DNA of 64,000 nucleotides. Source: Pelagibacteraceae bacterium GOM-A1 (GTDB lineage Bacteria; Pseudomonadota; Alphaproteobacteria; Pelagibacterales; Pelagibacteraceae). Where the stretch lies: positions 3,634-67,633 of the forward strand of contig LHBX01000057.1 of NCBI GenBank assembly GCA_001704065.1, in the 5' to 3' direction. The notes beneath the pieces were generated by a model. It did not search any database. It worked only from the letters and a program-made list of their open reading frames with translations, and had not been told where the DNA came from. This document shows positions 12,678 through 62,472 of this stretch, piece after piece (position 1 is the first letter of the stretch; each line of letters opens with the position of its first letter). Both the position numbers and the translations under genes were made by a program.

Positions 12678-12719
12678 AAATTCAAAATATTACATTAAGT
12701 TTATTAATATACTTATCAA

Positions 12720-12747
12720 TTGACGCACCTATTTCTTCAACTATAAG
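12720..12747 (+). promoter_or_regulatory. putative sigma70 promoter upstream of sppA-glyQS-ppdK
   Basis: TTGACG-N16-TATAAG; a second TATAAT at 12773-12778 lies 7 nt before the ATG. Confidence 0.35.
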
Positions 12748-12785
12748 TAGCTTTATAATTAAATAAAATTTTTATAATCATTTGT

Positions 12786-22441: not shown

Positions 22442-22445
22442 TTTA

Positions 22446-23126: not shown

Positions 23127-23275
23127 AAATATTAATACATATAAATAATTAAGTTATTTATGGGTTAACGAATATCACCCTTATTTAAAAAAAAAAGTTA
23201 TAAATATTTGTAAATTATCTTTTGTTTAATATGATAATAATTGTAATTTGTTTAGATTATTTTATTTAGTATAAA

Positions 23276-24460: not shown

Positions 24461-24538
24461 AAATATATATAATAAAATTATCTAGAAACTATTTACTTAG
24501 AAAGTAATGTGATACCTTAAGAAAAAAATTGTATTAAT

Positions 24539-25297: not shown

Positions 25298-25298
25298 A

Positions 25299-28353: not shown

Positions 28354-28360
28354 AATTTAT

Positions 28361-30073: not shown

Positions 30074-30118
30074 GTTAATTTATTATCTCTACCTCACTCT
30101 TCTATAAATTAAAGATTT

Positions 30119-31021
30119 TTATTTAGAGTTTAAATAATCTTTTATTTGCAGCTTTAATCCTTCCTCTATTTTTATTGGATTAAAATTAAAATCTTTAATT
30201 GCTTCATCAAAAGTGAATATTTTATCTTCACCTTGTCTTCTGACTTGTGATGAATTTATTGGGAATTTTCCAAAAAACAAAATATTTAAAATTTTAACTA
30301 ATATTGCGCTAAAATTTATCGGTAATCTTATAAATATAATTTTTTTCTTTAAAGTAGCTTCAATAATCTTTAAAATTTTTGAATATTCAATAGAATTTTT
30401 GCCAGCTAAATTATAGCACTTGTTAAATGTAACATTTTTATTTTTAATGACATTAAAGTAAGATTTGGATAAATCATTTACATATATTGGTTGTAATAAA
30501 TTTTTCCCATTTCCAAATATTGGAAAAATCTTATATTTATCTAAGTACTTAATTAATCTAGAAATATTAATATCTCTTTTGTTACCATAAATCATTGTTG
30601 GACGAAGTATAGTTATATTTTTGTTTTTTTTTAAAATATCTTTCTCAATATTAATTCTATTTAAAATAAATTTTGATTTATTTTTTGAGAAGATCATTGT
30701 AGAGTGAACTAAAATAAACCATTTAACTTTTTGTTTTGATCCAAATTCAACAATTTTTGGACTATTTTCCATATTAGCTAAATTTAATACAGTATCAATG
30801 TTATCAAAACATTTTTCCAAAAAGTTAGTATCATTAATATCACCATTTAATATTTTAAAATTTAATCTAAATTGATTGAAATATTTATTTTTACTTTTAT
30901 CTCTAGATACAACAGTAATTTCTCCTTCAAATTTTTCTTTTTCTAATATTTTTAAAAAATAATTTGCTGTATTTCCTCTCGCCCCAAAAATTATAAGTTT
31001 TTCAAAATTTTGAAGTAACAT
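30119..31021 (-). CDS. NAD-dependent epimerase/dehydratase-like (atypical SDR)
   Basis: IIFGARGNTA Rossmann motif, ILRPTMIYG, IFGNG..LLQPIYV.DL, YNLAG. Confidence 0.82.
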   Translation of the reverse strand: MLLQNFEKLIIFGARGNTANYFLKILEKEKFEGEITVVSRDKSKNKYFNQFRLNFKILNGDINDTNFLEKCFDNIDTVLNLANMENSPKIVEFGSKQKVKWFILVHSTMIFSKNKSKFILNRINIEKDILKKNKNITILRPTMIYGNKRDINISRLIKYLDKYKIFPIFGNGKNLLQPIYVNDLSKSYFNVIKNKNVTFNKCYNLAGKNSIEYSKILKIIEATLKKKIIFIRLPINFSAILVKILNILFFGKFPINSSQVRRQGEDKIFTFDEAIKDFNFNPIKIEEGLKLQIKDYLNSK

Positions 31022-46903: not shown

Positions 46904-48193
46904 CTATTTTCCATCTATAGCAACAATCGTTAAATCATCTTTTTGTATGTGGCCTGCTCCTAAAATATCATCTATCATAGTTTTAAGTCTATCGTTGATC
47001 GAAGTTGATTGATATTTTTTGATATAATTTTCAAAACCTTCTGATCCTAACATTTCCCCATTTGGATTTTTTATCTCTGTAATCCCATCTGTAAAAATGT
47101 ACATCGAGCTATTTTCGAAAGGTATAGTGTGCTCAGGATATTTTGTTTTAGGCATAATGCCTAGTGGAGGGCCAGCTTCTGAGAAATTACTAAAAGTTCC
47201 ATCAGCAGACAAAATCAAAGGTGGCTCATGACCTGCACTAGATAACAATAGCTCTTTTTTATTTGAATCGTATATTCCAATTAACATAGTAACAAACATC
47301 CCTCTTGAAATAGTTTCACATATCTCATTATTTAATTGAAATAGTAAATCAGATGCAGAAAAATTAGTTTTACTTAAACATCTATAAAGACTAGATGCTT
47401 TCGACATTAGTAGTGAAGATTTAATACCTTTTCCAGATACATCAGCAACACCAAATCCATATTTACCATCTCCTAAATCAGAAAAATTATAAAAGTCACC
47501 TGAAACAACTTTGGCAGGGATATTTATTCCAGATATAGGAAAGTCTTTCTCTTTATTTTTAGATAATAAGGATCTTTGAATTTCTCCAACAATTTCTACT
47601 TCTTTTTGAATTTTATTTTTTTCGACCATTTCTTTTGCCATCTTTGCATTTCTAATTGCTAAAGCAGCTGGCGCTGAAAGTGTTTCTAAAAGTTTTCTGT
47701 CATCTTCTATAAATAATTTGTCTTGAGTTTTCTTATTTAGACAATGAATGACTCCAATACATTCATTTGCAGCAATTAAAGGAGAACATAAAACTGAGTA
47801 GGTTGTAAAATTTGTTTTATTATCGAGGTCAAAATAAAATTCTGCTATTTCTCGTACATCTTTTCTAACGTTACCAACACGGATACACTTCCTTTGTTCG
47901 ACAGCTTTACCCATAACTCCATCTTTTAAATTTAGCTCATACTCATCTAAATAATCTTGATGTAATGATGCGATACATTCAAATTTTTTCTTGTCTTCAT
48001 TAATTAAAAATATATTGGCAGCTTGTGCATTTAGTCTTGCAATAATAACTCTAAGTGCATTCATTAGGGTATCATTCAAATCTAGAGATAAAGCGAAATC
48101 CTGATTCATTTTTGTGACCAGTTCTAGATCCACATTAACTTGTGAAACTTCTTTTTCTGGCTCGATAGGTTTTTTTGACTTAAAAAAGATCAT
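46904..48193 (-). CDS. GAF + PP2C/SpoIIE (RsbU-like) Ser/Thr phosphatase
   Basis: GAF domain ending A.AIRNA, coiled coil, then SGDFY, DVSGKG, AGHEPP, FTDGITE, DDLT. Confidence 0.9.
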   Translation of the reverse strand: MIFFKSKKPIEPEKEVSQVNVDLELVTKMNQDFALSLDLNDTLMNALRVIIARLNAQAANIFLINEDKKKFECIASLHQDYLDEYELNLKDGVMGKAVEQRKCIRVGNVRKDVREIAEFYFDLDNKTNFTTYSVLCSPLIAANECIGVIHCLNKKTQDKLFIEDDRKLLETLSAPAALAIRNAKMAKEMVEKNKIQKEVEIVGEIQRSLLSKNKEKDFPISGINIPAKVVSGDFYNFSDLGDGKYGFGVADVSGKGIKSSLLMSKASSLYRCLSKTNFSASDLLFQLNNEICETISRGMFVTMLIGIYDSNKKELLLSSAGHEPPLILSADGTFSNFSEAGPPLGIMPKTKYPEHTIPFENSSMYIFTDGITEIKNPNGEMLGSEGFENYIKKYQSTSINDRLKTMIDDILGAGHIQKDDLTIVAIDGK

Positions 48194-48322: not shown

Positions 48323-48352
48323 TTCACATCTCATCAAACATTAAATTATAAT
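48323..48352 (+). promoter_or_regulatory. putative sigma70 promoter of the pilD-moxR operon
   Basis: TTCACA-N18-TATAAT, ending 9 nt before the GTG start. Confidence 0.45.
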
Positions 48353-48361
48353 CAAATTTAA

Positions 48362-49123
48362 GTGGACTTTATATTCGTAATAGTTTTTGGAGGACTATGG
48401 GGTAGTTTTGCAAATGTTTGCATATATAGATTTCCAAACAATGAAGGCGTTGTATCCGGAAGATCGTTTTGCCCAAATTGTAAAACAAAAATCAATTGGT
48501 ACGATAATATTCCTCTAATTTCTTATATTGTTCTAGGAGGAAAGTGTAGGAGCTGTAAAAAAAAAATATCCATTCAATACTTTATTGTAGAAACTTTAAG
48601 TATAATTCTATTTACTTCAATTTATTATAAATTTGGTGCTTCACTCACCACTTTATATTTAATAATACTTTCTCTATCCTTTTTAATTATTTTTTTTATA
48701 GATCTTAAACATTTTATAATTCCAAATGTTTTAACTTTTTTTTTAATGATAATAGGATTTATAAAATCTTTTGATCCAAATTTAAATTCAATGTTCCCCA
48801 ATTATATGAACTCTTTAATTGGAGGAATTTTTGGTTATGGAATTATATGGTCGATCATATTTATTTATAAGGCTATTAGAAAAAAAGAAGGAATGGGATT
48901 AGGCGATGCCAAGTTATTTGGAGCAATTGGATTTTGGTTTGGATGGGTATCTATTCCTTTTATAATATTTTTGTCTTCTATAACTGCACTTATTCATGTT
49001 ATTCCTAGTTTATTAAATAGATCAAAAAATATATCTTCACAAATTCCCTTTGGTCCGTATATCATTTTAGCCACATTGATATATGTTATTTTTGAAAGTA
49101 ATATTAAATCTTTAATATTTTAA
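48362..49123 (+). CDS. pilD: type IV prepilin peptidase/N-methyltransferase (A24)
   Basis: GSF.NVCIYR, RS.CP.C...I.WYDNIP, KCRSC, ID..H, GMG.GD.KL, IPFGP. Confidence 0.95.
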   Translation: MDFIFVIVFGGLWGSFANVCIYRFPNNEGVVSGRSFCPNCKTKINWYDNIPLISYIVLGGKCRSCKKKISIQYFIVETLSIILFTSIYYKFGASLTTLYLIILSLSFLIIFFIDLKHFIIPNVLTFFLMIIGFIKSFDPNLNSMFPNYMNSLIGGIFGYGIIWSIIFIYKAIRKKEGMGLGDAKLFGAIGFWFGWVSIPFIIFLSSITALIHVIPSLLNRSKNISSQIPFGPYIILATLIYVIFESNIKSLIF

Positions 49124-49135
49124 GGTAATATCAAA

Positions 49136-50023
49136 ATGATATTTAATGAAATAATAGCTAATACATCGAAAATTATAATTTCTAATGTAGATAAAATTAA
49201 ATTGACATTGGCTGCAATAGTTTCTGAAGGAAGTATTTTAATTGAGGACTATCCAGGATCAGGCAAAACAACATTTGCAAAAGCTATTACGCAAAATCTT
49301 GGTCTTAACTTTAAAAGGATACAGTTTACTTCTGATTTATTACCCAGTGATATTCTTGGATTTAATATTCTTTCAGATGGAAAGTTAAACTTTCAACAAG
49401 GTCCAATTTTTACAAATATAGTTTTAGCAGATGAACTTAATCGCGGAAGTCCAAAATCACAAAGTGCCTTCTTGGAGGCAATGGAAGAAAAAAATGTTTC
49501 AATAGATGGTGAAAGCTATAAACTGCCTGAACCATTTTTTGTTATTGCTACTCAAAATCCTATGGATTATTCAGGTACAAGTTCTTTACCAGATTCCCAG
49601 CTTGATAGATTTATGATTTCATTTTCTTTGTCTGATTTAAATGAAAACGATAAAATTTTGATGTTAAAAAATACAAGTAAATTAAATGGTGCTTCATCAA
49701 AAGCTGTTGATTGGGAGACAATTAAACAAAAAAAAAATCAACTAACCATAAAAGATGAAATTTTTAAATATGTTGTTGAAATAGAGCAAGTAATTCAAAC
49801 CCTTGAACAAAGGATTTATATTTCTGCAAGATGTTTAAAGCAAATCTTGGATTTAGCTAAGGGTTGGGCAATTATTCATGAAAAAGATTATGTAACTCAT
49901 CAAGATATTAAGGAAACTCTGCCTTACATATTAAGACATAGAATTAAATTTCTTAACCAGGAGGATAAAATGAGCTTCATTAATGAGGAAATACTTCAAA
50001 AAATTAAAATAACCAATGGTTAA
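49136..50023 (+). CDS. moxR: MoxR family AAA+ ATPase
   Basis: PGSGKT, RIQFTSDLLPSD, LADELNR, ATQNP, LP.SQLDRF. Confidence 0.93.
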   Translation: MIFNEIIANTSKIIISNVDKIKLTLAAIVSEGSILIEDYPGSGKTTFAKAITQNLGLNFKRIQFTSDLLPSDILGFNILSDGKLNFQQGPIFTNIVLADELNRGSPKSQSAFLEAMEEKNVSIDGESYKLPEPFFVIATQNPMDYSGTSSLPDSQLDRFMISFSLSDLNENDKILMLKNTSKLNGASSKAVDWETIKQKKNQLTIKDEIFKYVVEIEQVIQTLEQRIYISARCLKQILDLAKGWAIIHEKDYVTHQDIKETLPYILRHRIKFLNQEDKMSFINEEILQKIKITNG

Positions 50024-50936
50024 TCAGCTAGTACAGAGGTTAACGAACTTAGACTTTAAAAATTTAATCAATCTTAAAAAAAAACTTAAAGTTTACATAT
50101 ATCCCAATCTTCAAGGACTATTATTAGGACTGTTTGTATTTTTTTGCTTTTTAATATCTGTATTTTATGAAAATAACTCAGGACTTCTTATTTCAATTGT
50201 TATTTTCTTTATTTTCTTTATTTCAATTTTTATCTCACATCAAAATATTAACAATTTAAGAATAAATTTTCTAACAGAATACTTAGTTGAAGCAAATAAA
50301 ACAGAACATATAAACTTTAAGATAATTAATGATGCAAAAGAGAAAAAATTAAATATCGATTTAGAGATCAATAAATCAATTTTACAAAATTTTAATTTAT
50401 CAGATAAAATAAAAGAATTTAATATAAAATATAATTACGACAAAAGGGGCGTCTATTCTTTAAATAAAATAATTTTAAAATCGATATATCCATTTGGAAT
50501 AATAAGGACAAAAATAAATTATCAACCTTTTAGTAAAGTATATGTATTTCCACAAAAATTAATTCCTAATCAAGAATTATTACAAGAATTTAAAATTCAC
50601 CAAAATAATAATTCTGATGAATTTGACGGTATAGATGAATACAAGAAAGGAGATAGTTACTCAAAAATCGCTTGGAAAAAATCAACTATTGGAGACAAAA
50701 AATTTGTAAAAGAATTTAAGTCTTTTAAAAGCTCGAAAAAATCAATCCTAGATTTAAATAAATACAGTCATATAGAATTTGAGAAATTATTAAGTTACTC
50801 AGTATTTATTTTAGATTATTATTTCACAAAAAGTCTAAATTTAACCTTTAAACACAAAGATAGTGTGTTCAATTTAAACGAAAATAAAAACTCTCTAAAT
50901 AAAATTTTAAAGTATATTTCAAATGTTAAAAATTAA
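50016..50936 (+). CDS. DUF58 domain protein
   Basis: Two N-terminal TM helices, S.YPFG, EFDGIDEYKKGD...IAWK.S; follows moxR. Confidence 0.82.
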   Translation: MVNQLVQRLTNLDFKNLINLKKKLKVYIYPNLQGLLLGLFVFFCFLISVFYENNSGLLISIVIFFIFFISIFISHQNINNLRINFLTEYLVEANKTEHINFKIINDAKEKKLNIDLEINKSILQNFNLSDKIKEFNIKYNYDKRGVYSLNKIILKSIYPFGIIRTKINYQPFSKVYVFPQKLIPNQELLQEFKIHQNNNSDEFDGIDEYKKGDSYSKIAWKKSTIGDKKFVKEFKSFKSSKKSILDLNKYSHIEFEKLLSYSVFILDYYFTKSLNLTFKHKDSVFNLNENKNSLNKILKYISNVKN

Positions 50937-52818
50937 ATCGCAAAATATTAGTCTTCTTACTTATATTATATTATTTTTTTGCTTAGTTTCGTTGTCTACA
51001 GATTTAATATTAACTAATAAAATATTTTGGGGCACTTTATTTTTTTTAAGTTTTATTTTTTCAAAAATACACTTTAAGTTCAAGTCCATAGCAGTTGGAG
51101 TATTTGCTTTGGGAGCTCTATATATTCAATTGATTTTCAATCAATATGTTTTGTCCGAAGATTTTTTTCTAAACTGCCTTGGAGTTTTGCTAATAATAAA
51201 GTTCTCAGAACTTAAAAATAAAAATAATCTTTTGTCATATAATTTAATCTCTATGATTATTGCTGTAGCAAGTTTAATTAAGGGTCAAGATATACTAAGT
51301 ACATTAAACTCCTTTCTAATCTTAATACTTTTAGTTGTTAACATGTATCTTATTCAACAAAAGGAAATTCTCGATTTCAGTTTAAAAAATATTTTAAAAT
51401 ATTTAGGATTTGCTCTTAGTATATTTCCGATTATTATTATTTTTTATCTTGTATTTCCTAGGGCAGAGGTAAATTTCAGATTATTTGATACATCTGCAAG
51501 CTCAGTAGGTATTCCAGATAGCATAGATCTTGGTTCATTTAGCCAGTTTTCGAACTCAGACGAAGAAGTTTTTACTTTAATAAATAACAATTTTAAGAAG
51601 GAGGATCTTTATTTTAGGGTCAAAATCTTTGATTATATGGAAAAAGATCAATCTTGGAGACCTTCCTCAAGTTACTATCTTTTTAGTGAATTTAAAAATT
51701 CTTTGAGAATAAATGGTAATGAAGATTTAAATAAAAATTATCAGATTATTTTAGAACCATATAAAAAAAAATGGATACCGAGTTTAAAAAACTCAAAATT
51801 AGTCACTAATGATATTCAAATTACAAAAGATTATTTTAACCAGTCTTTTGTAAGTAGGGAACTAATTGACAGAAAGAAGAAATTAATTTTTAAAATGAAT
51901 AAATCTGATTATTCTTTGGATAACCCACTAAAAAATTATTATACTTTGTTACCAGAAAATGTATCCCCAAAAATAAAAGAATGGGTAAATAAAAATAATG
52001 TAAGTACCAAAGAAGAATTCATTGAAAAAATTTATAAAAGATTTTCTGATGGATCATATTTTTACAACCTTAGTCCTCAGATAAACTCAAATAATAAATA
52101 TGAAAACTTTTTCTTTAATTCTAAAGAAGGATACTGCGAATATTATGCAGGAATGTTTGTCTTACTTACAAGATTAGCACAAATTCCAAGTCGGATAGTG
52201 ACAGGTTACTATGGTGGAGATTTAAATGAGATTGGGAATTTTTTCCAATTTAAACAAAAAGATACGCATGCTTGGGCAGAAGTTTGGTTTGATGAAAGAG
52301 GGTGGGTTAGAATTGATCCAACTAGGGCAATACCTAATTCTAATATTAGAAACTCATTAAATAATTATTTTGTAAATAATGATAAATTTTCAAGCTCGAT
52401 ATTTTCTAATAATTTTTTTAAAACAATTAATTTTTATTTTAACTATGTTGATTTTGTATGGACTCAACATTTACTATCATATGATGATAATGAAAGAAAA
52501 AATTTTATAAAAGAATTACTAAATTTAAATTTTTCAAAAATCATTGTTTGGATATTCGTACCAATATTATTATTTGTAAGCATAAAATTATTATATAATT
52601 TCAATTCAACTAATTTGATGAGGCTAAAATTAGCTTTCATTCTTCTAGGAAAGAAAAGAAAACTTCAAATAAAAAATTCGGATACTATCCAAGAGATTTA
52701 TCTTAAACTTATGGAAAAAGATAAAACAAAATACCAAAATTTTTTTAAATTTTACGAGAAGCAGATCTACTCAAATAACCAAATAAGTTTTATAAAAGTT
52801 TTAAAGTTAGTTTTTTAA
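50923..52818 (+). CDS. TgpA-like membrane transglutaminase-superfamily protein (DUF3488 + transglutaminase domain)
   Basis: N-terminal multi-TM region, FPR, YFR, catalytic triad GYCEYYA / HAW.EV / DPT. Confidence 0.88.
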   Translation: MLKIKSQNISLLTYIILFFCLVSLSTDLILTNKIFWGTLFFLSFIFSKIHFKFKSIAVGVFALGALYIQLIFNQYVLSEDFFLNCLGVLLIIKFSELKNKNNLLSYNLISMIIAVASLIKGQDILSTLNSFLILILLVVNMYLIQQKEILDFSLKNILKYLGFALSIFPIIIIFYLVFPRAEVNFRLFDTSASSVGIPDSIDLGSFSQFSNSDEEVFTLINNNFKKEDLYFRVKIFDYMEKDQSWRPSSSYYLFSEFKNSLRINGNEDLNKNYQIILEPYKKKWIPSLKNSKLVTNDIQITKDYFNQSFVSRELIDRKKKLIFKMNKSDYSLDNPLKNYYTLLPENVSPKIKEWVNKNNVSTKEEFIEKIYKRFSDGSYFYNLSPQINSNNKYENFFFNSKEGYCEYYAGMFVLLTRLAQIPSRIVTGYYGGDLNEIGNFFQFKQKDTHAWAEVWFDERGWVRIDPTRAIPNSNIRNSLNNYFVNNDKFSSSIFSNNFFKTINFYFNYVDFVWTQHLLSYDDNERKNFIKELLNLNFSKIIVWIFVPILLFVSIKLLYNFNSTNLMRLKLAFILLGKKRKLQIKNSDTIQEIYLKLMEKDKTKYQNFFKFYEKQIYSNNQISFIKVLKLVF

Positions 52819-54825
52819 CAAAAGATTTCTTTCAGTCTTGAGTTTATTATTTTCTTTGATCAACTGAATAATCATGTCTTTCATTATTCTATTCTCTTCA
52901 ACTGCTCTACCACTTATCTCAGCCAATCTTTCATTTTCTTTAGCTAGCTGCAATTGATCAAATAATTTTTCTAGTTCTGGATCAATAGGTAGACCCTCTA
53001 TTTTTTTGCTAATATTATTCTGAATTACTTTAGTTAATGAAATACTTACTTGGCTGTCTTTAAGTCCATTTTGTTCATTAAACTCTAGATTAAAGTTTAG
53101 ACCAAAATCATCAGTATTTTTGCTGATATTTAAACCAGCTTTTACTGCTAAATCATCATCCATATAATGGGCCATGTCTTTTCTTTCACCGTCTGCAACA
53201 ATGTCAATTTTTTCACTCAAAGTTTGATTTAAAGATAGGCCTGTATATGGTTTAAGCACAAAACCATTTTCAAAAGATTTTGAATACTCAACGTTAAATC
53301 CACCTGATAATACTTGATCCACTGCATCATCAACTGATAGATCCCCATCTGTAAAAGATGTTAGATAAGTTGGAAGTCTTCTTAGACCATATTTACCATC
53401 CACTTCAATATTTAAACTTTGACTATCATCAATTTTTATATCTTTAGATACTTTATAATTTACAGCAGCAAACTGACCTAGATTTTCTTTTGAAATAGTT
53501 TGTTGTGTTTCAGTTTCAAGATCTAAATATTTATTTTGAGTTAATCCAAAAATTGAAACGACAGAAAATTTAAATTTCTCGTAATCAATATCTTTTTTTA
53601 AACCAATAGCTAAATTTTCACTATCTAAAGCTTCTCCATTATTAAATTTTGCCTGCTGAGATGAATAACTTAAGAACGGTGTAAAGTTATCATTTTCAAT
53701 TTTAAAGTCTCCCGTTACACCACTTGTTTCACTTTTATAAATATTATCTCTTTTTTTAACAGAATAATATCCACTAGATTTTTTTTCTTCTGAAACCGAA
53801 TTGAAAATATCATTTAAATTAGATAAAAATATTTCTGATCTATATTTTTTATTATGGCTATCAATATCTAAATCTTCACCATAAATTCTTAAATATCCAT
53901 TTGTTTCAGAATTATCTGCATCTGGATTTAAATTTGAGTCTAGAATTTCATAAGTATCATTCCCACATAAATTGTTGATTACCCTCATATTTTGTTTCTC
54001 ATGAATTTCTATGGTCTGATCTCTTGAAATACTACAATCTAACGTAAAGTCGAAAAATGTTACACCGGTTGTTCCGTTTTGATCACTAAGTAGAATTTTA
54101 CCATCATAATGTCCTTCTCCTTTTGTTATTAAATTAAATCCCGAAGTTACATTGTTATCATCGCTAACATATATTGAATTTCTATCGTTATGAGTTGTGC
54201 CAGCAATTAAACCAGAATTAATAATTGTAGCATTATTTAATGAGCCATGACCTTTACCAAGTCTAATTCCATGTCTTAAATTTGTAATTGTTCCAGTGTT
54301 TGTTATTGTTGCATTTGTACCATTGGTAAGGTAAATGGCAGCACCAGTTGTATTATTTGCAGAAATAGTACCACTGTTTGTAATGGCTATATCGCTAGTT
54401 TCTAGACCTTGTATAGCATATTTTCCACCATGAATAGTTCCACTATTAACAATCTCAGTGTCATTTGTTTTCTGAACTAAAACAGCAGTGCTACTGCTAG
54501 CATTTTCATTTTGAGCTGTATTTATTGTACCTGAATTAGTAATTCTATTTGTTCCAGGGGCGCTTTTCATATTTATGGTATCACCCGTTGCACTTATCAA
54601 ACCATGGTTGATTACGGTTGTATTTGATGCACCAACACCATTATTTGCTCTTACTGCTTTAGATCCACTAAATACTATTGAACCAGTTGACTTAACAGTC
54701 AAGGTTTCACTTGCTCCACAAGTTTGCACATCAGTTAGCGCAGTAGTTACAGTTTTAAGACAAGTAGCATGACCTAAAGAGCTAAATAAAAAGAATAAAA
54801 TTAAGCTGAGGTATATTTTTTTCAT
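52807..54825 (-). CDS. autotransporter-like outer-membrane protein with beta-helix passenger and C-terminal coiled-coil tail
   Basis: Signal peptide, six [IV].N.G.I repeats, amphipathic beta-strand region, then ~71 helical residues; SD-like AGGTG upstream. Confidence 0.6.
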   Translation of the reverse strand: MKKIYLSLILFFLFSSLGHATCLKTVTTALTDVQTCGASETLTVKSTGSIVFSGSKAVRANNGVGASNTTVINHGLISATGDTINMKSAPGTNRITNSGTINTAQNENASSSTAVLVQKTNDTEIVNSGTIHGGKYAIQGLETSDIAITNSGTISANNTTGAAIYLTNGTNATITNTGTITNLRHGIRLGKGHGSLNNATIINSGLIAGTTHNDRNSIYVSDDNNVTSGFNLITKGEGHYDGKILLSDQNGTTGVTFFDFTLDCSISRDQTIEIHEKQNMRVINNLCGNDTYEILDSNLNPDADNSETNGYLRIYGEDLDIDSHNKKYRSEIFLSNLNDIFNSVSEEKKSSGYYSVKKRDNIYKSETSGVTGDFKIENDNFTPFLSYSSQQAKFNNGEALDSENLAIGLKKDIDYEKFKFSVVSIFGLTQNKYLDLETETQQTISKENLGQFAAVNYKVSKDIKIDDSQSLNIEVDGKYGLRRLPTYLTSFTDGDLSVDDAVDQVLSGGFNVEYSKSFENGFVLKPYTGLSLNQTLSEKIDIVADGERKDMAHYMDDDLAVKAGLNISKNTDDFGLNFNLEFNEQNGLKDSQVSISLTKVIQNNISKKIEGLPIDPELEKLFDQLQLAKENERLAEISGRAVEENRIMKDMIIQLIKENNKLKTERNLLLKN

Positions 54826-54837
54826 TACACCTTTTTA

Positions 54838-57800
54838 TTAATTTTCTCTCCAAGACTTTCTGTAAGTTTGAACCTCACCAGTAGCAGCATCTAATGTAAC
54901 AAGGTCAGCAACTGCTCCTAACGATTTACCTGATATATTTGCAAAAATTTTGCCAGCGAAAAGTACAATTTCTGATAAGACCCCTTTACCAACAAATCTA
55001 CATAAAGTTTTTTGTTGTTCTGTTCTTTTAGATTCTAATCCAATAAACGAGTCATGTGTTCCGCATTCATCATCAGTTACACAAATTAATGCATCTCCCA
55101 AGTCACATTTGTTTTGAGATACAGATGGTCTATAAACTGGGAAGTAAACCATACCATTGTTTACTTTTGGTTGAGCAGTAACTTTAGCAAAATCTTTTAA
55201 TACAACATACCAACCTCTATCCTTATCTGTCACTCTACAAGTAGTTCCGCTTCTATCATTTGATGTATTTTGACATTTTGTAATATCATCTGCATTTTTT
55301 GGAGTTGCGATAGATTTATAGAATGGATAATCTGGATCTTTTATTCCAATCATTAAGTTATTTGTTCCTTTTACTCTTGCATTCAATCTTTGAGCATCCC
55401 CAGTTCCAGCGTACAACCATAAATTATTTGTTGTTCCACCAATTGAAGCATCTAATGGTTTATACATGTATCTACCATTTGATTTAGTTGCTCCTGCTTT
55501 AAATAATGTTGTTATGTCATACATTTTTATAGGTACATTTTGAGGATCTGTACTCATATTTGTTAAATTTAATTTACTAATTTTACCTTCTAAATCAGAC
55601 AAATATACAAGTGCTCCTGCAAAGTCAGCACCCCTTGCTTTATCTGGAGTAATAACTGTTAATGATGCGGGAACAGAATTATCAATATCGCTTGCAGTAG
55701 TATCTTCTACCGTAATTGTCTTTATTAATTGTCCAAACTTATCTTTTGATTGCAGATCAATAACAAATACATTACTACCAGCTCCTGAGAATTGAGCACC
55801 AAAACCTCCACCCATTACAGCGACTGATATATCGTCATCTCTGACATTGTCTCCAGCACCAGCATTAGGTAGTCTAAATATTCTTGGATCTGACCATGTT
55901 TCTCCAAGAGTACTGTAGTCCCATTCAGGGTCTGTTACAACTCCAGTACCAACTGCTCCTTGTTTTATATTCACTCCGATCGGTGAGTTGTCTCTTTGAG
56001 TTTTGGACTCATCAGCATCAAATTTCATTTTTTTGTTGAAATTAATTTGAGTGTTTCCAGATGTATCATAGCTAATTGTAATGCTATTTGTTATATCAAC
56101 TCCATCTTCAAGAACTGATAGCATACTTTTAGTTAGACTTTTTACTGGTAAAGTCCATTTTGTGCTTTCGTAACAATATTTTGTTTGTGTATCATCACAA
56201 GTTTGCTTACTGGCAACTTCATTATCTTTATCTGGAGCATAAACGTTACCTACTTCTTGCGCCTCTAGAAATTCACTTAGAGGATAAGATGTACCTATAT
56301 AATCATATACAAAAACATTATTTGCATGATCCATTCTGTACACCTGATTATTAATCATATCATTATATATTGAGACTAAATGCTCTGGTTTTGCAGGATC
56401 AGTCACATCTAACACAGAGAAACCACTACCTCCTCTTCCATAAGGTACAAACAATACGGTATGCCAATTTGCAGATGTATCATGTGGACTTTGAAAGAAA
56501 ATATCATGTTGAACGGGAGATCCATCAACACCATAAATTGCATTTGAACCTCCTTTGTTTGGATTAATTTCATTTAAGTTAGTATTCATTATTGTAGGTA
56601 ATCTTGATGCTATAAATGGTGGCACAAATCCCCACAATTCTACTCCTGAGCCTGCATCTAAAGCATGCAAAACTCCGCTGTTTGATCCAGCATAAATTAC
56701 AGGTTTTCTCAATCTCTGAGATTCTGCCCAACTATCATATCCCTTAGTTGATCTCCAATAAGCCTCTTGATTTTCACTTGTAAAAGCTGTTTCTGCAGTT
56801 GGTGGTCCTACAACAACTAATTGTGAATGGTAAACATCTCCCATTGGCTTAGCTCTTGTTTCTGTCAGATTACAATCTGCATCATAATCAAAATAATCTG
56901 TCCCTCTAATAAAATTAATTAAGCCTTTTAAATCATCATCTGTTCCATCTGCTACACCACTTGTGTTTGCACATCTTTTATTATTTATAGAATTATCAGT
57001 ATTTTTAGTTTTTCTGTGATAGTCCTGAATATCAAACCCTTTTAGAGTTAAGATACTTTCAATCGCTGAAGAATTACTTTCTACCCAGTTGTTATAATTT
57101 GTCGAATAATCCGTTCCAGGAATTGGACTCCATATCTTTCTATTCCCTGGTTTAGGCAGTACATCAACAGCTGACCAATTACCTTTATCTTTTGTATCAA
57201 GATTTCCTTTTTTATCTATTTTTGTTCTCTTAATTGTTCCAGTCCACTCTTTATTTTGAGCATAATCAAACTGTGCTTGATACAATGATCCATCAGAGTT
57301 TAATGTTGCAGTAATAGCAGGCGCTGTGAAAGATAACTTAGATGCAATTATTTGCGAAACAGCAGCAGCTAGTTGAGTTTTGAGTGACTCTGCTGTTGGA
57401 GCAACAATAGCTTTTGTTGTTCCTCCTGCCACAGCTAGTTCATTAAAATACCTCATTCCTCTATTGCTAATTCCTGTTCCAAAAGCAATTGCGAATGTGG
57501 GTATCTTATAATTATTAAATAAGTTTTTTGCCATAGCCACAGCTTTTGAGTGATTGTACCAATCACCATCTCCAATAACGAGGACATAACTTTTTTGACA
57601 AGGTGAATTTTTATCAATTGGGCTTAAACTTCCATGAAGATAATAGTCTTGAGCTATTTTCATAAATGTATAGGCATCAGTTCCACCTCTTGCATTAACT
57701 GACGAAATAATTTTGTTAATTTGCGCAGCCCCATTATTATGAACTCTTACTTTTAAACAGTTTTGGGTATCACAAGGTTTTGCTCTACCTGTGGTTATAT

Positions 57801-58974
57801 CCCCTGACCATGAACTAAAACCTGGTGGCCATGCTTTCGATGACCATGAACTTGACCAATAACCAAAGCCAAAATTTACACCTGATGTTAAATTGGAGTC
57901 TGTGACCACTGCTTTTATGGCTTTATGTGCTGCTGCCATTCTTGTAGTTGCAGCATATCCACCAATAGACTTTATATATGTTCCATTTTCATCAAAGACC
58001 TGAACTTTTTTTGCATTATATCCATAGGTAATAATCCTATCATTGCTATGATCATAACTAATTCCAAAAGGATAATAAAAAAATGTATTACTTGCAGTTG
58101 AAATACCCATGTATCGGTATCTGCCTTTGTCCCAATTTAATGTGTATCCAGTTCTTGACGAGTTAACAGTTATTTTACGCATCTTATTATAGCTACGAGC
58201 CATAATATAAAGCACATCATTTGTGTTAGGGTCTGCTTCCATTCCATAAACATAGCCTGAAGCACGATCTCTAAAATATTTAGCTCTTCCTGAAGGACAC
58301 AAAGTGCCTCCAACACTAGTTAAAGGAGCACTATAAAGATAACGACTATAGTGACTGTAAAGAGTATTGTTACTTCCTGCAATAGCATATGTATATCTCC
58401 ATTCATTATGGAAATTACAACGTCTTCCACTATTAGTTTTCAGGTTCATTGAATACAAACCACTGTTGGAAGTGGTAAATAAATAATTTTGATAAACTGT
58501 TACACCTCTAGGATAAGTGCCAGTAGCTAAACTTCCTAAACAAGCACCATCTGAAAGTCTAATCTTTCTAATTCTATGGTCATATAAACTTGCCACATAC
58601 ATGACCCCGTTATAAACATCTGCACTGTAAGGATAGTAAGTTCGACATGACCCACTCATACCAACTCTTCCATTTGAACCCCAAGAAGTATCAGTTTTAC
58701 CAGTAGTATAATCTATTTTTCTAACCCCATATCTTGAAAATTGTGCAATATAAATATTTCCTGAACTGTCCGTAACACCATCAAACATTCTATTGATTGA
58801 TTGTGCGTTACTCATTCTCCAACCCATACTTCCAGATTTATCTAAAAGAATTAATAAGTTGGAAGGAACATCAGCTTGTGTTCCAGTGCCTGGCGGCAAT
58901 AATTTTGCATGTAAGTTTGATGCAAAAAAAGAAAAGAACAGTATTAGGCTGGATATAAAAATTTTAAATTTCAT
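54838..58974 (-). CDS. pilY1: PilY1/PilC type IV pilus tip adhesin (vWA + inserted NHL propeller + PilC propeller)
   Basis: Signal peptide, LLDKSGSM MIDAS motif, GGT and IGDG, GDVYHS, YAGSN.G.LHA.D...G.E.WGFVP, GVDGSP, LGETWS.P. Confidence 0.9.
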   Translation of the reverse strand: MKFKIFISSLILFFSFFASNLHAKLLPPGTGTQADVPSNLLILLDKSGSMGWRMSNAQSINRMFDGVTDSSGNIYIAQFSRYGVRKIDYTTGKTDTSWGSNGRVGMSGSCRTYYPYSADVYNGVMYVASLYDHRIRKIRLSDGACLGSLATGTYPRGVTVYQNYLFTTSNSGLYSMNLKTNSGRRCNFHNEWRYTYAIAGSNNTLYSHYSRYLYSAPLTSVGGTLCPSGRAKYFRDRASGYVYGMEADPNTNDVLYIMARSYNKMRKITVNSSRTGYTLNWDKGRYRYMGISTASNTFFYYPFGISYDHSNDRIITYGYNAKKVQVFDENGTYIKSIGGYAATTRMAAAHKAIKAVVTDSNLTSGVNFGFGYWSSSWSSKAWPPGFSSWSGDITTGRAKPCDTQNCLKVRVHNNGAAQINKIISSVNARGGTDAYTFMKIAQDYYLHGSLSPIDKNSPCQKSYVLVIGDGDWYNHSKAVAMAKNLFNNYKIPTFAIAFGTGISNRGMRYFNELAVAGGTTKAIVAPTAESLKTQLAAAVSQIIASKLSFTAPAITATLNSDGSLYQAQFDYAQNKEWTGTIKRTKIDKKGNLDTKDKGNWSAVDVLPKPGNRKIWSPIPGTDYSTNYNNWVESNSSAIESILTLKGFDIQDYHRKTKNTDNSINNKRCANTSGVADGTDDDLKGLINFIRGTDYFDYDADCNLTETRAKPMGDVYHSQLVVVGPPTAETAFTSENQEAYWRSTKGYDSWAESQRLRKPVIYAGSNSGVLHALDAGSGVELWGFVPPFIASRLPTIMNTNLNEINPNKGGSNAIYGVDGSPVQHDIFFQSPHDTSANWHTVLFVPYGRGGSGFSVLDVTDPAKPEHLVSIYNDMINNQVYRMDHANNVFVYDYIGTSYPLSEFLEAQEVGNVYAPDKDNEVASKQTCDDTQTKYCYESTKWTLPVKSLTKSMLSVLEDGVDITNSITISYDTSGNTQINFNKKMKFDADESKTQRDNSPIGVNIKQGAVGTGVVTDPEWDYSTLGETWSDPRIFRLPNAGAGDNVRDDDISVAVMGGGFGAQFSGAGSNVFVIDLQSKDKFGQLIKTITVEDTTASDIDNSVPASLTVITPDKARGADFAGALVYLSDLEGKISKLNLTNMSTDPQNVPIKMYDITTLFKAGATKSNGRYMYKPLDASIGGTTNNLWLYAGTGDAQRLNARVKGTNNLMIGIKDPDYPFYKSIATPKNADDITKCQNTSNDRSGTTCRVTDKDRGWYVVLKDFAKVTAQPKVNNGMVYFPVYRPSVSQNKCDLGDALICVTDDECGTHDSFIGLESKRTEQQKTLCRFVGKGVLSEIVLFAGKIFANISGKSLGAVADLVTLDAATGEVQTYRKSWREN

Positions 58975-59522
58975 TAATTTTGAGACTCACTTTTCGCCAT
59001 CTCTTCTTCAAGTTGATTATAGAAAATTCCAAGTAACTCATCATATTTTTTGTTAGAAAGATACATTTGCTCTTCAATAAATCCAAGATCATCCAAAGTT
59101 CTTTGGTAAACTATAAACTGCTTTGTTTTTTCAAATACTTCATACCCAAGATATGAGGTTGGAGTTTGACCTGTATCAAAGTCACCATAATTTCTTTTTA
59201 CATATTTCATTATAGTTAATTTTTCAGATTTTTTTGTGTCGCTTTCAGTATTTAAACTAATTAAATTAACCGCAGCTAGTTTGTCGTTTAAAAATCTATA
59301 CTCAATAGCAACATCTTTTAACCTGTGGTTTGGGCAGACTTCATCAGCAACAGCAATAACCATGCTCAATTCATCTTCTCCAAAATTTTCTAGTGGCATT
59401 GCTTGGCCATATTTGTCCTGTATTTTTGAGATATCCTCTCCAAAATCTAAATCAAATTTACAAGCTGCGTTTGCATGAATTGAGAAAAGGAATATGAAGC
59501 TTATTAAAATAATTTTTTTCAT
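58974..59522 (-). CDS. hypothetical secreted protein in the minor-pilin operon
   Basis: Sec signal peptide (..HANA/ACK), no pilin motif; stop overlaps the pilY1 start (TAATG). Confidence 0.75.
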   Translation of the reverse strand: MKKIILISFIFLFSIHANAACKFDLDFGEDISKIQDKYGQAMPLENFGEDELSMVIAVADEVCPNHRLKDVAIEYRFLNDKLAAVNLISLNTESDTKKSEKLTIMKYVKRNYGDFDTGQTPTSYLGYEVFEKTKQFIVYQRTLDDLGFIEEQMYLSNKKYDELLGIFYNQLEEEMAKSESQN

Positions 59523-59572
59523 AAACGTATATATTATCTTATTTTATTCATATTTTATTAGTTAATAAAACC

Positions 59573-60331
59573 TTAATTTTTAGGTAAAACTACCACACTT
59601 TCTAACGAAACTATCATTCTATCTTTTTCTTTTTCAGCTCCATAAATACCACAACCATAAACTCTGTAAGCAATACCATTCTTTGAAGCATCAGATGCCG
59701 TTAATTTAATGCTGGATCCTATTGCTTGTGTACTTGCAGCACCAATTCTTTCAATAAAGTACTCATAATAATAACTTTTCATTCTAACTGCTTCCTCTTT
59801 TTCAAAATCTTTACCTTTATTTCTAAAGGTATTTTCAAGAATTACTCCAAGATTAAAACTGTGAGCCACTTCTTTTTTCGTGGTTTCATTCTTTATAACT
59901 CTCATCCTTTTTTTGTCGTCTGGATTATCTCTATCAATATCTCTATAGCTTTTAAAACAAGATGTACCTGTATTTATAAATTTTCGATCAATTGTTGATG
60001 TAAATTTATATTTAGAACCTGGATTATAGTTTTGCGCACTCATAGTTCCTAAAAAAGGAGAGGTATGATCTTCTGGTAAATTTGCTTTTGAAGTATCTCT
60101 AGTGCTTTTTCCATCCCATGGTCCACTTTTCTCATTTAAAATATATTTCTCACCTTGTAGAAGTGCCATCTCTGCAGCATAAAATGTTTGTTGATATTGA
60201 TCACTGTTATTATTGCTTTGATGGTCACCCGATGAAATTAATATCAATGCTCCACCCATTAATGACATTGCCAATAGCAAAACTAATGACAAAACCATTG
60301 CAAACCCTTTTTCTGATTTTCTAATTATCAT
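59573..60331 (-). CDS. pilX: PilX-like minor pilin
   Basis: KG/FAMVLSLVLL without Glu+5; AAE.AL..GE helix typical of PilX_N. Confidence 0.85.
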   Translation of the reverse strand: MIIRKSEKGFAMVLSLVLLLAMSLMGGALILISSGDHQSNNNSDQYQQTFYAAEMALLQGEKYILNEKSGPWDGKSTRDTSKANLPEDHTSPFLGTMSAQNYNPGSKYKFTSTIDRKFINTGTSCFKSYRDIDRDNPDDKKRMRVIKNETTKKEVAHSFNLGVILENTFRNKGKDFEKEEAVRMKSYYYEYFIERIGAASTQAIGSSIKLTASDASKNGIAYRVYGCGIYGAEKEKDRMIVSLESVVVLPKN

Positions 60332-61125
60332 AATCCCATATTTCTTGTGTATGCTGATACAACTAAAGCTTCTCTTAAAAACTTATCTGTGAATTTCTTA
60401 TTAGATTTTTGACCTAAAAGTCTAAATGGTCTTTCCCGCTCTTTTCTAAAAAACTCACCTTGAGATCTTAAAGATACCATTATATCAACAACTTTAATCT
60501 TGTTACTATCGCTAAGTGTTTTAGGAATTGGATTCATCACTTTACCCTTGCTATCAATTGGAATAAAAATTAATTCTTGAACGTAATCAACTACTAATTC
60601 GTCTTTATAAAGCAAGTCATCAGTTGATTGTGTTGGTGCCGTCCAGCTAGATCCATTCCATTCATATTTTGATTTATAAATAGCATATGCATTAATTTTT
60701 TTGCTTGTTTTTTTGTCTACAATATTTGATGCTTTACACTCATAAACGACTTTGTATGTTTTATATAAAAAAACTGGTGGTTTAGCGTTAAGATTTTTAG
60801 GATCTCTAATTCTATCACCGTAAGTTATTTCAATTTTATCACAACCGCTACCTGGAGCTTTTGTAATTAAAATTGGAACGTAATTTGTTGGGGTTTTACT
60901 GACATCATCAAAATATCTAAAACCTGCAATTCTTATATCTCTCACTAACATTCCAATCATATCTCTTCCTGTCTGACTAATCTTTGCTCGATCAATTACT
61001 TGGGAATAACTATTATTAACTGCGTTGTAAGATGTAAACATAGCAGCCATCATTATCATTGAAATCACAACCCCAATAAGAATTTCAATTAGCGTTACTC
61101 CAGTTTCTGAATTAAATTTTTTCAT
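60328..61125 (-). CDS. pilW: PilW-like minor pilin
   Basis: TG/VTLIEILI class III signal; L.RDIR.AG motif. Confidence 0.85.
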   Translation of the reverse strand: MKKFNSETGVTLIEILIGVVISMIMMAAMFTSYNAVNNSYSQVIDRAKISQTGRDMIGMLVRDIRIAGFRYFDDVSKTPTNYVPILITKAPGSGCDKIEITYGDRIRDPKNLNAKPPVFLYKTYKVVYECKASNIVDKKTSKKINAYAIYKSKYEWNGSSWTAPTQSTDDLLYKDELVVDYVQELIFIPIDSKGKVMNPIPKTLSDSNKIKVVDIMVSLRSQGEFFRKERERPFRLLGQKSNKKFTDKFLREALVVSAYTRNMGL

Positions 61126-61766
61126 CAGTTCATTTGAAAATATAAATATTTTTTCTTTTGAACAGTTTCACCTTTAGTATCCGTCCCTGTAGTTGGCATT
61201 AATATTTCCATTCTGCCGATATAAGTTTTGTCCCAAATATCATCATTACGATAATCACAGTTTGGTCTACTCTTACCATTTTCTTTTACGTTATTTCTAC
61301 AAATCTCATAAACTTTTAATTTTTTTGTATCTTTGGTTGTTGTTGAGTTAACACTTGTGGGTTTGCATTTAATTCTGTCGCTTGATACTCTCAAATTCCA
61401 TTTTTGTGTTTTATTATCAATTGCAATATCTTTACCTTTATAAGGATTGCCTGTTATATTTTTTTTCGGTTTACATTCTGCATTTTGCCAAGCGTAATCA
61501 TTCTTATCCGTTAAGTTAGCTAGATGTTCATAAAGTTTATCATCACCTTTTTTTGAATTTGCATCTCCAATTAAATCTTCTGCTATCATAGCAGTGATAT
61601 AATTAGATTTTGTTCTTTCCCCAGAAACATCAATTGATCTAACTGAATAATTGACCATCTGAAAAACCGCTATAAAACCTATTCCAACAATAGCCGTTGC
61701 AACTAAAGCTTCTAAAAGCGTTAAACCCTTTTCTTTTAATTTACTGTCTATTCCAATCACTTCCAT
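61125..61766 (-). CDS. pilV: PilV-like minor pilin (exact start uncertain)
   Basis: KG/LTLLEALV class III signal; position between the FimT-like and PilW-like genes. Confidence 0.75.
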   Translation of the reverse strand: MEVIGIDSKLKEKGLTLLEALVATAIVGIGFIAVFQMVNYSVRSIDVSGERTKSNYITAMIAEDLIGDANSKKGDDKLYEHLANLTDKNDYAWQNAECKPKKNITGNPYKGKDIAIDNKTQKWNLRVSSDRIKCKPTSVNSTTTKDTKKLKVYEICRNNVKENGKSRPNCDYRNDDIWDKTYIGRMEILMPTTGTDTKGETVQKKKYLYFQMN

Positions 61767-62472
61767 TCCATTTAAATTTACTTACATTACCAAATCTTGA
61801 CCATTTTACTAAATAGGCTGGTTTTTTAAGAACTTTTCCTTTTGTAGGACATTTGTTTGCATTTTTTTTTGCGTTCTCATAAGTGCAAATAACAATGTAA
61901 TTAGGAGTAGCGCTACCTTCAACAATGATGTTAACGTTACTTCCTTTTGAAAGAGCATTGGTTGCTTTATAATAATTTCCTCCTTTACCAAAACATATTG
62001 CAGATGTTAATAGAAAATGAACTGCAATTTTAGACTCGCCAATTACATTTTCCTCAGGATTGAAAATTTCGTAATACTCACTAAAATTTGTTCCCTCAAT
62101 ATTTTTACGTGGTTTACCAAAATCATCCCAATAACCTGATGAGGATACTGGACAATTAATTTGTCCATTCTGCAATTTTTGTTTGAAATTTTTATCTCCC
62201 ATTCCCTTTGATACAAAAATTGAGCTTTCTTGGTTTTTAGAGCCTGTAAATGTTTGTACCATTAATTGGCTATAAGCTAAGTTTCCTCTTTGAGTTTGTG
62301 TTGCAATATTAGAAATCATGCTTGCAACTTTTTCTGTTGCAGCTCTTACTTTTCGTTCTGTGCTCCATTTTGAAAAACTTGGATATGCAACTCCAGATAT
62401 GATTGCTACAATTGCAATAACAACTAGCAATTCTAAAATTGTGAAACCTTTAATGTCCTGATCTTGCTGCAC
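61741..62472 (-). CDS. FimT/FimU-like minor pilin
   Basis: KG/FTILELLVVIAIVAII...AYPSF; GTG start overlaps the pilT 3' end by 23 nt. Confidence 0.8.
   Translation of the reverse strand: MQQDQDIKGFTILELLVVIAIVAIISGVAYPSFSKWSTERKVRAATEKVASMISNIATQTQRGNLAYSQLMVQTFTGSKNQESSIFVSKGMGDKNFKQKLQNGQINCPVSSSGYWDDFGKPRKNIEGTNFSEYYEIFNPEENVIGESKIAVHFLLTSAICFGKGGNYYKATNALSKGSNVNIIVEGSATPNYIVICTYENAKKNANKCPTKGKVLKKPAYLVKWSRFGNVSKFKWNGSDWNRQ

Follow-up and report, generated by a model that had tools for sequence, protein, structure and literature searches.

The window analyzed here, a stretch of 64,000 nucleotides (nt) from Pelagibacteraceae bacterium GOM-A1 (contig LHBX01000057.1), contains a type IV pilus (T4P) locus, in which the prepilin peptidase gene pilD is followed on the same strand by three genes (hereafter the trio) encoding a MoxR ATPase, a DUF58-type protein, and a TgpA-like transglutaminase. 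A first-pass annotation of this DNA had described the four genes as one apparent operon, and had proposed that the trio serves pilus assembly or passage through the wall. The comparison with homologous loci from other genomes, which are labeled below with L-numbers (L001, L009, and so on), showed that the segment consists of two units set side by side: pilD, which heads a hypervariable slot of the SAR11 Ia type, and a self-contained trio, which fills this slot.

Genes and proteins of the pilD–trio segment

The host of the window belongs to SAR11, and a genome scan based on TgpA returned 55 SAR11 loci from single-cell genomes and metagenome-assembled genomes, with identities of 56–99%. The window is AT-rich, with a GC content of about 30%. 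All four open reading frames (ORFs) were found where the first-pass annotation had placed them (Table 1), and the same was true for the 12-nt gap between pilD and moxR, the 8-nt overlap of moxR with the DUF58-type gene, and the 14-nt overlap of the latter with tgpA. To the left of pilD the window contains ilv and leuA genes, the mreBCD-pbp2-rodA genes, and the divergent gene of a phosphatase with GAF and SpoIIE domains, and on the right side, beyond the minor pilin genes, it contains pilT.

PilD has the features of a type IV prepilin peptidase of the MEROPS A24A group, namely the PF06750 domain (3e-33) with four cysteines, and the PF01478 domain (1e-21) with two catalytic aspartates. Both CxxC pairs are kept (CPNC...CRSC), the aspartate motifs are FIDLKHFIIP and GLGDAKL, and the hydropathy profile points to about six transmembrane (TM) segments. 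In the canonical type IVa pilus arrangement of Gamma- and Betaproteobacteria this gene forms part of the series pilB-pilC-pilD, with coaE in addition. The two-domain architecture and the motifs of SAR11 PilD are the same as in this canonical system, but the gene is not located beside pilB or pilC; instead, it is divergent from the SpoIIE/GAF gene, or located beside a STAS-domain gene in subclade IIIa, to which HIMB114 belongs, and it heads a slot for cassettes. Among the loci of 80 SAR11 genomes anchored on the SpoIIE gene, 73 have contigs that reach pilD, and all of these showed the divergent pair of pilD and the SpoIIE/GAF phosphatase gene, while the other seven contigs end early. In loci of the HIMB114 and HIMB1485 types the STAS-domain gene adjoins pilD (L163:18396-19694; L137:1508-2776). 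The pairing of pilD with genes of partner-switching-type signaling hints at an RsbU/RsbV-like control of the pilus locus.

The motifs of the MoxR ATPase are intact (Walker A GSGKTT, Walker B VLADELNR), and its hydropathy profile contains neither a TM segment nor a signal peptide, hence it is predicted to be cytoplasmic. The middle ORF, encoding a protein of 306 amino acids (aa), gave no match to Pfam or NCBIfam models, including DUF58 (PF01882), even at E ≤ 1. In about 95 of 119 proteobacterial loci from outside SAR11 it has its homolog in the gene that separates moxR from tgpA (phmmer E values from 1e-4 to 1e-19), and its cluster is called DUF58 by both JGI and NCBI. It also contains a stretch, KGDSYSKIAWKKS...VKEF, which we take to resemble the DUF58 motif. 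The hydropathy profile of this protein suggests a K/R-rich N-terminus in the N-in orientation, two TM helices, and a C-terminal part of 239 aa, which is predicted to be cytoplasmic. Its AlphaFold2 model, with a predicted local distance difference test score (pLDDT) of 73, consisted of a β-sandwich and a poorly resolved region around the DUF58 motif, and the matches of this model in a Foldseek comparison with the PDB were limited to CARDB/MG/FN3-like sandwiches. With the motif region being modeled at low confidence, a von Willebrand factor A (vWA) fold is not claimed for this partner of MoxR.

TgpA is predicted from hydropathy to contain about seven N-terminal TM segments, a loop of 361 residues (179–539) carrying the catalytic triad, a further TM segment (540–558), and a K/R-rich tail. 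The Cys-His-Asp triad is intact, as it had been noted in the first-pass annotation, and Cys405, His449, and Asp465 are invariant both in the alignment of Pelagibacterales proteins and among 40 distant representatives. A periplasmic location of the loop 179–539 agrees with the hydropathy and with the distribution of K/R residues, and by analogy with TgpA of Pseudomonas aeruginosa this catalytic loop probably faces the periplasm. The order moxR-DUF58-tgpA is shared by SAR11 and 67 of 80 loci of Beta- and Gammaproteobacteria, while the remainder are interrupted by contig ends.

The trio belongs to a known type, as also recognized in the first-pass annotation. In P. aeruginosa the genes PA2875 (MoxR-like), PA2874 (DUF58), and PA2873 (TgpA) are co-transcribed (Milani et al. 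2012, PMC3507681). The residues 180–544 of P. aeruginosa TgpA, annotated as periplasmic, showed calcium-independent transglutaminase activity in vitro, and the tgpA gene was reported to be essential, while a pilus role was not reported (PMC3507681). The SAR11 and P. aeruginosa trios share the gene order and its tight coupling, and the TgpA proteins share a multi-TM TgpA_N part, a large Transglut_core loop with the Cys-His-Asp triad, and a C-terminal TM segment with a tail. On the other hand, the SAR11 TgpA is 25–30% identical to proteobacterial TgpA representatives, and the SAR11 DUF58 protein does not reach the Pfam threshold. The genomic setting is also different, because the SAR11 trio follows pilD inside a hypervariable T4P locus and its presence varies from strain to strain, in contrast to the reported essentiality of P. 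aeruginosa tgpA.

Variation of the slot downstream of pilD

The 80 genomes anchored on the conserved SpoIIE gene served as an unconditional sample of SAR11, in which 69 loci were informative, while 11 were uninformative due to contig ends or an unresolved arrangement. The data showed that pilD and moxR were adjacent in 29 loci and were separated by an insert of 2.6–5 kb in 22 loci. In the other 18 informative loci (26%) the trio was not located between pilD and pilY1, a count that covers the slot itself, and in these trio-less slots pilD and the pilY1/minor-pilin operon were still present. Hence, the pilus loci do not regularly carry the trio, and pilD-moxR is not a fixed operon.

Among the loci anchored on TgpA the common order was mre...rodA, spoIIE (on the minus strand), pilD, moxR-DUF58-tgpA, (672-aa gene), pilY1...pilV, and pilT. 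Those inserts between pilD and moxR that were inspected are autotransporter-type genes on the same strand. For example, the insert of L001 (5629-8208) is the gene of an 859-aa autotransporter with an Autotransporter beta-domain (1.7e-28) and a Big_5 domain, inserted in the same orientation with 43 nt separating it from pilD and 8 nt from moxR. The trio-less slots carry genes of autotransporters (4e-30 to 8e-33), of a GDSL lipase lipoprotein, and of small membrane proteins, as well as tandem genes of PilA-like prepilins; the number of tandem pilA genes in the slot ranges from 1 to 11. The presence or absence of the trio was also seen between sister genomes, where L273, L276, and L277 have the series pilD-insert-trio-pilA-684-aa gene, and in L272, L274, and L279 this frame lacks the trio.

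Tandem PilA-like arrays were observed in the slots of L271 (1993-7886; about 11 genes on both strands, in a locus scored as unresolved), L270 (7061-8615), L288 (7568-9069), and L283-L287. Their members have a common N-terminus, GFTLIELLVVVAIIGILAAVGVVAY, and divergent C-terminal parts, and the arrangement looks like an array of pilin-variant cassettes.

The genes that follow tgpA also vary. The first-pass annotation had described the four genes as converging on the minor pilin/pilY1 operon; the direct 3′ overlap of tgpA, which is 12 nt long, is with the 672-aa gene, and the PilY1-like gene (54838-58974) comes next. The 672-aa gene is absent in L022, L026, L043, and L045-L053, and its relatives can be found before or after the trio, in either orientation; it is a variable cargo of the slot downstream of pilD. 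In L046 (11914-12666) and L047 (11828-12583) the gene of a 250-aa DUF748 (AsmA-like) membrane protein is located 6 nt after tgpA on the same strand, as an additional neighbor of the trio in place of the 672-aa gene, and not as a replacement of the trio. This group of loci is more divergent, with TgpA 56–58% identical to that of the window. A second PilY1-like gene was observed on the rodA side of spoIIE in L263 (11298-18293), L269, L270, L281, and L282, sometimes together with an autotransporter-like gene and a second SpoIIE-like gene, and therefore the variable region reaches both sides in those strains.

To describe the history of the slot, sequence identities and allele classes were compared along the locus. 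In strains with 95–99% identical RodA, SpoIIE, and PilT, the identity was about 74% for PilD, 77% for MoxR, 57% for the DUF58-type protein, 66% for TgpA, and about 50% for PilY1. Likewise, the SpoIIE phosphatase was 95–100% identical in strains whose genes from pilD to pilV were only 50–75% identical. When the sequences were grouped by single linkage at 85% identity, pbp2, rodA, and spoIIE formed 1–2 allele classes, while 11 classes were formed by pilD, 7 by moxR, 11 by the DUF58-type gene, 10 by tgpA, and 17 by pilY1. The classes of the DUF58-type gene and tgpA co-vary nearly one-to-one. The trio classes reassort with the pilus and pilD classes, so that each of the pilus classes A and E is combined with trio class A in some loci and with trio class C in others. 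Allele co-variation was considered as a sign of co-evolution of the trio with the pilus, and the mosaic classes gave it no support. Between the window and L009, moxR, the DUF58-type gene, and tgpA are 96–97% identical, with a synonymous divergence (dS) of 0.05–0.22, and the flanking genes are 75% (pilD; dS 1.26) and 48% (pilY1; dS 1.38) identical. A nearly identical trio is thus located between deeply divergent pilD and pilY1 genes, which places the breakpoints at pilD/moxR (49123/49136) and at tgpA/672-aa gene (52818). On these data the trio is a recombination unit of its own, with a history distinct from that of pilD.

The dS values between allele classes were saturated (1.2–2.5), compared to 0.3–0.9 in the flanking core genes. 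The ratios of nonsynonymous to synonymous divergence (dN/dS) were 0.09–0.19 for pilD and the trio, 0.29–0.33 for PilY1, and 0.02–0.05 for core genes. The identity within TgpA was 0.65–0.68 in the TM part, 0.70 in the periplasmic part, and about 0.50 in the C-terminal TM segment and tail, which is the most divergent region. Positive selection on the periplasmic domain of TgpA was considered and rejected, because this domain is not where the divergence accumulates, and dN/dS does not exceed 0.19. These data indicate that the trio is under purifying selection, and that its alleles are old and functional, and do not result from pilus-driven diversification.

The transcription of the four genes was assessed in metatranscriptomes, whose contigs carry no strand information and could include DNA carry-over. 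The pilD-moxR spacer is crossed by contigs from two of eight metatranscriptomes (X27 rec17, positions 49059-49459; X28 rec26, positions 48963-49147), other contigs span the moxR-DUF58 and DUF58-tgpA junctions, with coverage of the region at low depth, and the four of the eight metatranscriptomes that were added later contained no junction-spanning contig. No terminator-like site was found between pilD, moxR, the DUF58-type gene, and tgpA. A promoter scan gave 42 σ70-like sites, compared to 54 in shuffled sequence, which makes the scan uninformative as evidence in DNA of 28% GC, and the site 5′ of pilD (Table 1) is a consensus match only. It is likely that pilD and the trio are co-transcribed in the window strain. 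What stands of the operon proposed in the first-pass annotation is the tight, co-directional arrangement, free of terminators and crossed by RNA contigs at every junction, while the pilD-moxR adjacency is not fixed across SAR11.

Table 1. Features of the pilus locus in the window
Feature	Position	Strand	Description
GAF + SpoIIE (PP2C) phosphatase gene	46904..48193	−	conserved left border of the variable region
σ70-like promoter match	48323..48352	+	TTCACA-18-TATAAT, 11/12; ends 10 nt 5′ of the pilD GTG
pilD	48362..49123	+	GTG start; 253 aa; Pfam A24_N_bact 3e-33, Peptidase_A24 1e-21
pilD-moxR spacer	49124..49135	+	12 nt; site of the 2.6–5 kb insert in other strains
moxR	49136..50023	+	MRP-type AAA+ ATPase, 295 aa; AAA_3 5e-54, AAA_lid_2 4e-10
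DUF58-type gene	50016..50936	+	306 aa; positional homolog in trio loci
tgpA	50923..52818	+	631 aa; TgpA_N (PF11992) 4.5e-27, Transglut_core (PF01841) 7.4e-22
672-aa secreted repeat protein gene	52807..54825	−	no Pfam family; convergent with tgpA
Pilus-tip operon: pilY1-like, 182-aa gene, pilX, pilW, pilV, GspH/FimU-like minor pilin	54838..62472	−	hypervariable; PilX_N, N_methyl, TIGR02523 pilV

Trio neighborhoods inside and outside the Pelagibacterales

A TgpA search over 1.84 billion representatives returned 27,040 relatives, and two alignment-based genome scans provided the set of 119 loci from outside the Pelagibacterales (1.92 Mb), which come mostly from Beta- and Gammaproteobacteria. The trio is kept in these loci wherever the contigs permit. 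A profile of 88 SAR11 PilD sequences (E ≤ 10), which had no positive control outside SAR11, detected PilD within 10 kb of TgpA in none of the 119 loci, and prepilin-motif ORFs were also found within 10 kb of TgpA in none of them. T4P are common in the taxa to which these loci belong. The genes located downstream of tgpA outside SAR11 included those of an SLT_2 lytic transglycosylase in 12 of 100 loci and of a Peptidase_M23+LysM protein in 10 of 100 (L056-L135, L171-L208), and a gene of the histone-deacetylase family was located upstream of moxR in 21 of 76. These neighbors are probably in part inherited synteny within Betaproteobacteria. The peptidoglycan enzymes among them fit the cell-wall role proposed for TgpA of P. 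aeruginosa (PMC3507681).

Inside the order, the trio was also found in other arrangements than that of the window. In HIMB1485, HIMB1495, and AG-901-M14 a same-strand series is formed by a 541-aa gene, pilA, a 282-aa gene, a 168-aa methyltransferase-like gene, and moxR-DUF58-tgpA, with the opposite strand carrying pilD and a STAS gene 6 kb upstream. In HIMB114 and HIMB109 the trio is followed by a methyltransferase-like gene, a sulfatase-family gene, two pilin genes, a PilO-like gene, and a zinc-ribbon gene, with STAS-pilD located about 7 kb downstream. The flanking core genes of both types are unlike those of the window. Thus, across the Pelagibacterales the neighborhood of the trio and pilus genes persists, while the pilD-moxR junction does not. 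The first-pass annotation had made its proposal depend on whether the trio is linked to pil genes in relatives, and these comparisons split the answer, because the linkage is seen inside the order and was seen in none of the 119 loci outside of it.

It was also observed that in the IIIa and HIMB1485 types (L163:11803-13775; L137:7669-8175, 11949-13508) the trio is flanked by the gene of a 168-aa fragment of an RrnaAD-like methyltransferase and that of a 493–519-aa membrane protein of the sulfatase family, beside pilin genes. The latter protein presumably resembles pilin phospho-form transferases, such as PptA of Neisseria.

Explanations for the position of the trio

The explanation that we tend to favor is that the trio is an autonomous envelope module of the PA2875-PA2873 type, and that it is one interchangeable cassette downstream of pilD. 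In genomes of the SAR11 Ia type the slot extends from pilD, the fixed first gene, to the pilY1/minor-pilin operon. MoxR would hydrolyze ATP in the cytoplasm, and the membrane-anchored DUF58 protein, with its soluble domain in the cytoplasm, would relay this action, so that TgpA is remodeled or gated. The Cys-His-Asp domain of TgpA would then act in the periplasm on an envelope substrate, which could be the cell wall or exported proteins. In the window strain, transcription from the pilD promoter probably continues into the trio, because the intergenic spacers of SAR11 are minimal. Such co-transcription would result from compaction rather than from a dedicated pilus function, and the pilus locus would need no trio in cis. 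The general tendency of SAR11 to fuse units through compaction weighs against a dedicated pilus role, as do the 119 outside loci that keep the trio without pil linkage, the trio-less slots with their many other cargos, the recombination of the trio as a unit, and the reassortment of its alleles. The P. aeruginosa trio, for which a pilus role was not reported, is a precedent for an autonomous module.

Several observations do not sit easily with an autonomous cassette. All Pelagibacterales trio loci with enough flank have T4P genes within about 7 kb, and this neighborhood is found in at least four gene orders with different flanks (Ia; Ia with pilA after tgpA; HIMB1485-type; HIMB114/IIIa). A neighborhood that survives rearrangement exceeds what is expected from chance adjacency. 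In L153, L156, L157, L160, and L170 a canonical pilA gene (MNKKGFTLIELLVVVAIIG...) is located 19–26 nt 3′ of tgpA on the same strand. Furthermore, the trio-less genomes were not among the TgpA match lists, which are not exhaustive.

The same persistence of T4P genes beside the trio, despite the changed order and flanks, speaks for an alternative in which the trio was recruited specifically in the Pelagibacterales as an accessory of the surface-protein island. The trio would there cross-link, deamidate, or trim pilins, PilY1, or autotransporter passengers, or it would remodel peptidoglycan locally, with MoxR and the DUF58 protein providing the coupling to ATP. We regard this alternative as rather unlikely, but it accounts for a number of the data. 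In addition to the loci with pilA directly 3′ of tgpA, pilA is located upstream on the same strand in L137, the slot-mates of the trio are secreted proteins only, and RNA contigs cross the pilD-moxR junction. Peptidoglycan hydrolase genes adjoin tgpA in about 22% of the other loci. There are also analogies in the bifidobacterial PFNA trio, which is accompanied by an FN3 adhesin, and in mycobacterial moxR1-DUF58, which is located beside the RipA/B hydrolase genes (PMC12067865). What argues against recruitment is that the slot is trio-less in 18 of the 69 SAR11 pilus loci, that there is no pil linkage in the 119 loci of other Proteobacteria, that the trio alleles do not co-vary with the pilus alleles and the breakpoints isolate the trio, and that evidence on the substrate is nil. 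A particular form of recruitment appears to us doubtful, namely that in the T4P/adhesin island the trio works as a periplasmic enzyme under ATP gating, and that pilins, PilY1, or autotransporter passengers are its targets for covalent modification through isopeptide cross-linking, deamidation, or trimming. Hence, the module serving pilus assembly or wall passage that was hypothesized in the first-pass annotation retains the T4P linkage across the Pelagibacterales in its favor, while the lack of linkage outside the order, the modular recombination, and the trio-less pilus loci speak against it.

The PFNA cluster consists of pkb2-fn3-AAA(MoxR)-duf58-tgm, and the mycobacterial neighborhood is ripAB-moxR1-DUF58-vWA (PMC12067865). 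Their likeness to the SAR11 trio is in the core of MoxR (MRP) and DUF58 with a papain-fold envelope enzyme, either a transglutaminase or NlpC/P60, located beside genes of exported adhesins or wall proteins. They differ from it in belonging to other phyla, in having other partners, and in containing no pilus genes, while the SAR11 trio contains neither a kinase nor a vWA gene.

The variability of the slot could also be explained if the trio were a phage-related cassette for envelope variation or defense, serving as an alternative cargo that alters or guards envelope receptors under phage pressure. The region is hypervariable and its allele classes are deep, with 57–67% aa identity between strains whose flanks are 97% identical. 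The hypervariable regions (HVRs) of SAR11 are known to hold pilins and autotransporters (PMC2217521), and a function as conflict systems has been suggested for MoxR-vWA systems (cited in PMC12067865). However, PADLOC gave no match for the DUF58-type protein, TgpA, or the 672-aa protein, and only a weak match of MoxR to the IetA P-loop (E 4e-4), hence membership in a known anti-phage defense system was rejected. The low dN/dS of the trio gives no sign of a replacement excess, the exposed domain is not more divergent than the rest, and many Proteobacteria have the trio as a stable module of the chromosome. We therefore consider a phage-related cassette improbable.

The first-pass annotation had also suggested that MoxR could work with PilY1, on the basis of a vWA domain in the latter. 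The PilY1-like protein has 1378 aa and a signal peptide, and its residues 703–866 match P. aeruginosa PilY1 (3hx6, 1e-14). The vWA domain is represented in its N-terminus by a DKSGS motif of the metal ion-dependent adhesion site (MIDAS) type and by a VWA_2 match below the threshold (E 0.003). A role of MoxR as a chaperone of this domain, in a RavA-ViaA-like pair, would be in line with the motif and the weak match, and with the observation that MoxR ATPases often partner vWA proteins (PMC12067865), but it is highly improbable, and was rejected on topology, because MoxR is predicted to be cytoplasmic while PilY1 is exported via its signal peptide, the two genes are in convergent operons, the trio is found with PilY1 alleles less than 50% identical, PilY1 loci without the trio exist, and the usual MoxR partner, a DUF58 protein with a predicted cytoplasmic C-terminal domain and with alleles co-varying with tgpA, is encoded directly beside moxR.

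A part of this picture is already known, namely the trio itself, from P. aeruginosa, the PFNA cluster, and mycobacterial moxR1-DUF58, and the hypervariable regions of SAR11 with pilins and autotransporters. HVR1 and HVR4 of SAR11 strain HTCC1062 were described as islands rich in pilins and autotransporters, with low metagenomic recruitment (Wilhelm et al. 2007, PMC2217521), and T4P genes were reported in SAR11 hypervariable regions (PMC12789548). The slot is similar to these islands in being located between conserved core genes and in varying among nearly identical strains, and it is not equated here with HVR1 or HVR4. The words "transglutaminase" and "MoxR" are absent from the latter paper (PMC12789548), "transglutaminase" is absent from the former (PMC2217521), and our literature search found no paper noting the trio in SAR11 or tying it to type IV pili. 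What is new is that the trio forms a cassette, present in some strains and absent in others, within the slot downstream of pilD, and that its neighborhood with pilus genes is order-wide.

TgpA has no known substrate even though it was reported as essential in P. aeruginosa, and little is understood of the common MoxR-DUF58 modules. SAR11, the most abundant bacteria of the ocean, offer a natural series of presence, absence, and allele swaps of the trio at one defined slot, which adjoins pilus and adhesin genes. Should the link be functional, the comparison of sister strains could expose the substrate. Recruitment to the pilus/adhesin island, if true, would mean that strains with and without the trio differ in pilus or adhesin chemistry, and it would provide the first physiological substrate of TgpA. 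If the link is not functional, the locus is a clean case of compaction fusing unrelated units into apparent operons within a hypervariable surface island, which is a caution for operon-based prediction of function in streamlined genomes.

Two further observations concern other parts of the window. The stretch 22000-31000, with 21–25% GC, contains an ATP-grasp gene, a family-2 glycosyltransferase gene, and several ORFs without a family, and it looks like a second variable island, of the surface-polysaccharide type. A further autotransporter gene, with an Autotransporter beta-domain (1.7e-22) and a Big_5 domain, is located on the plus strand at positions 620-2425, remote from the pilus locus.

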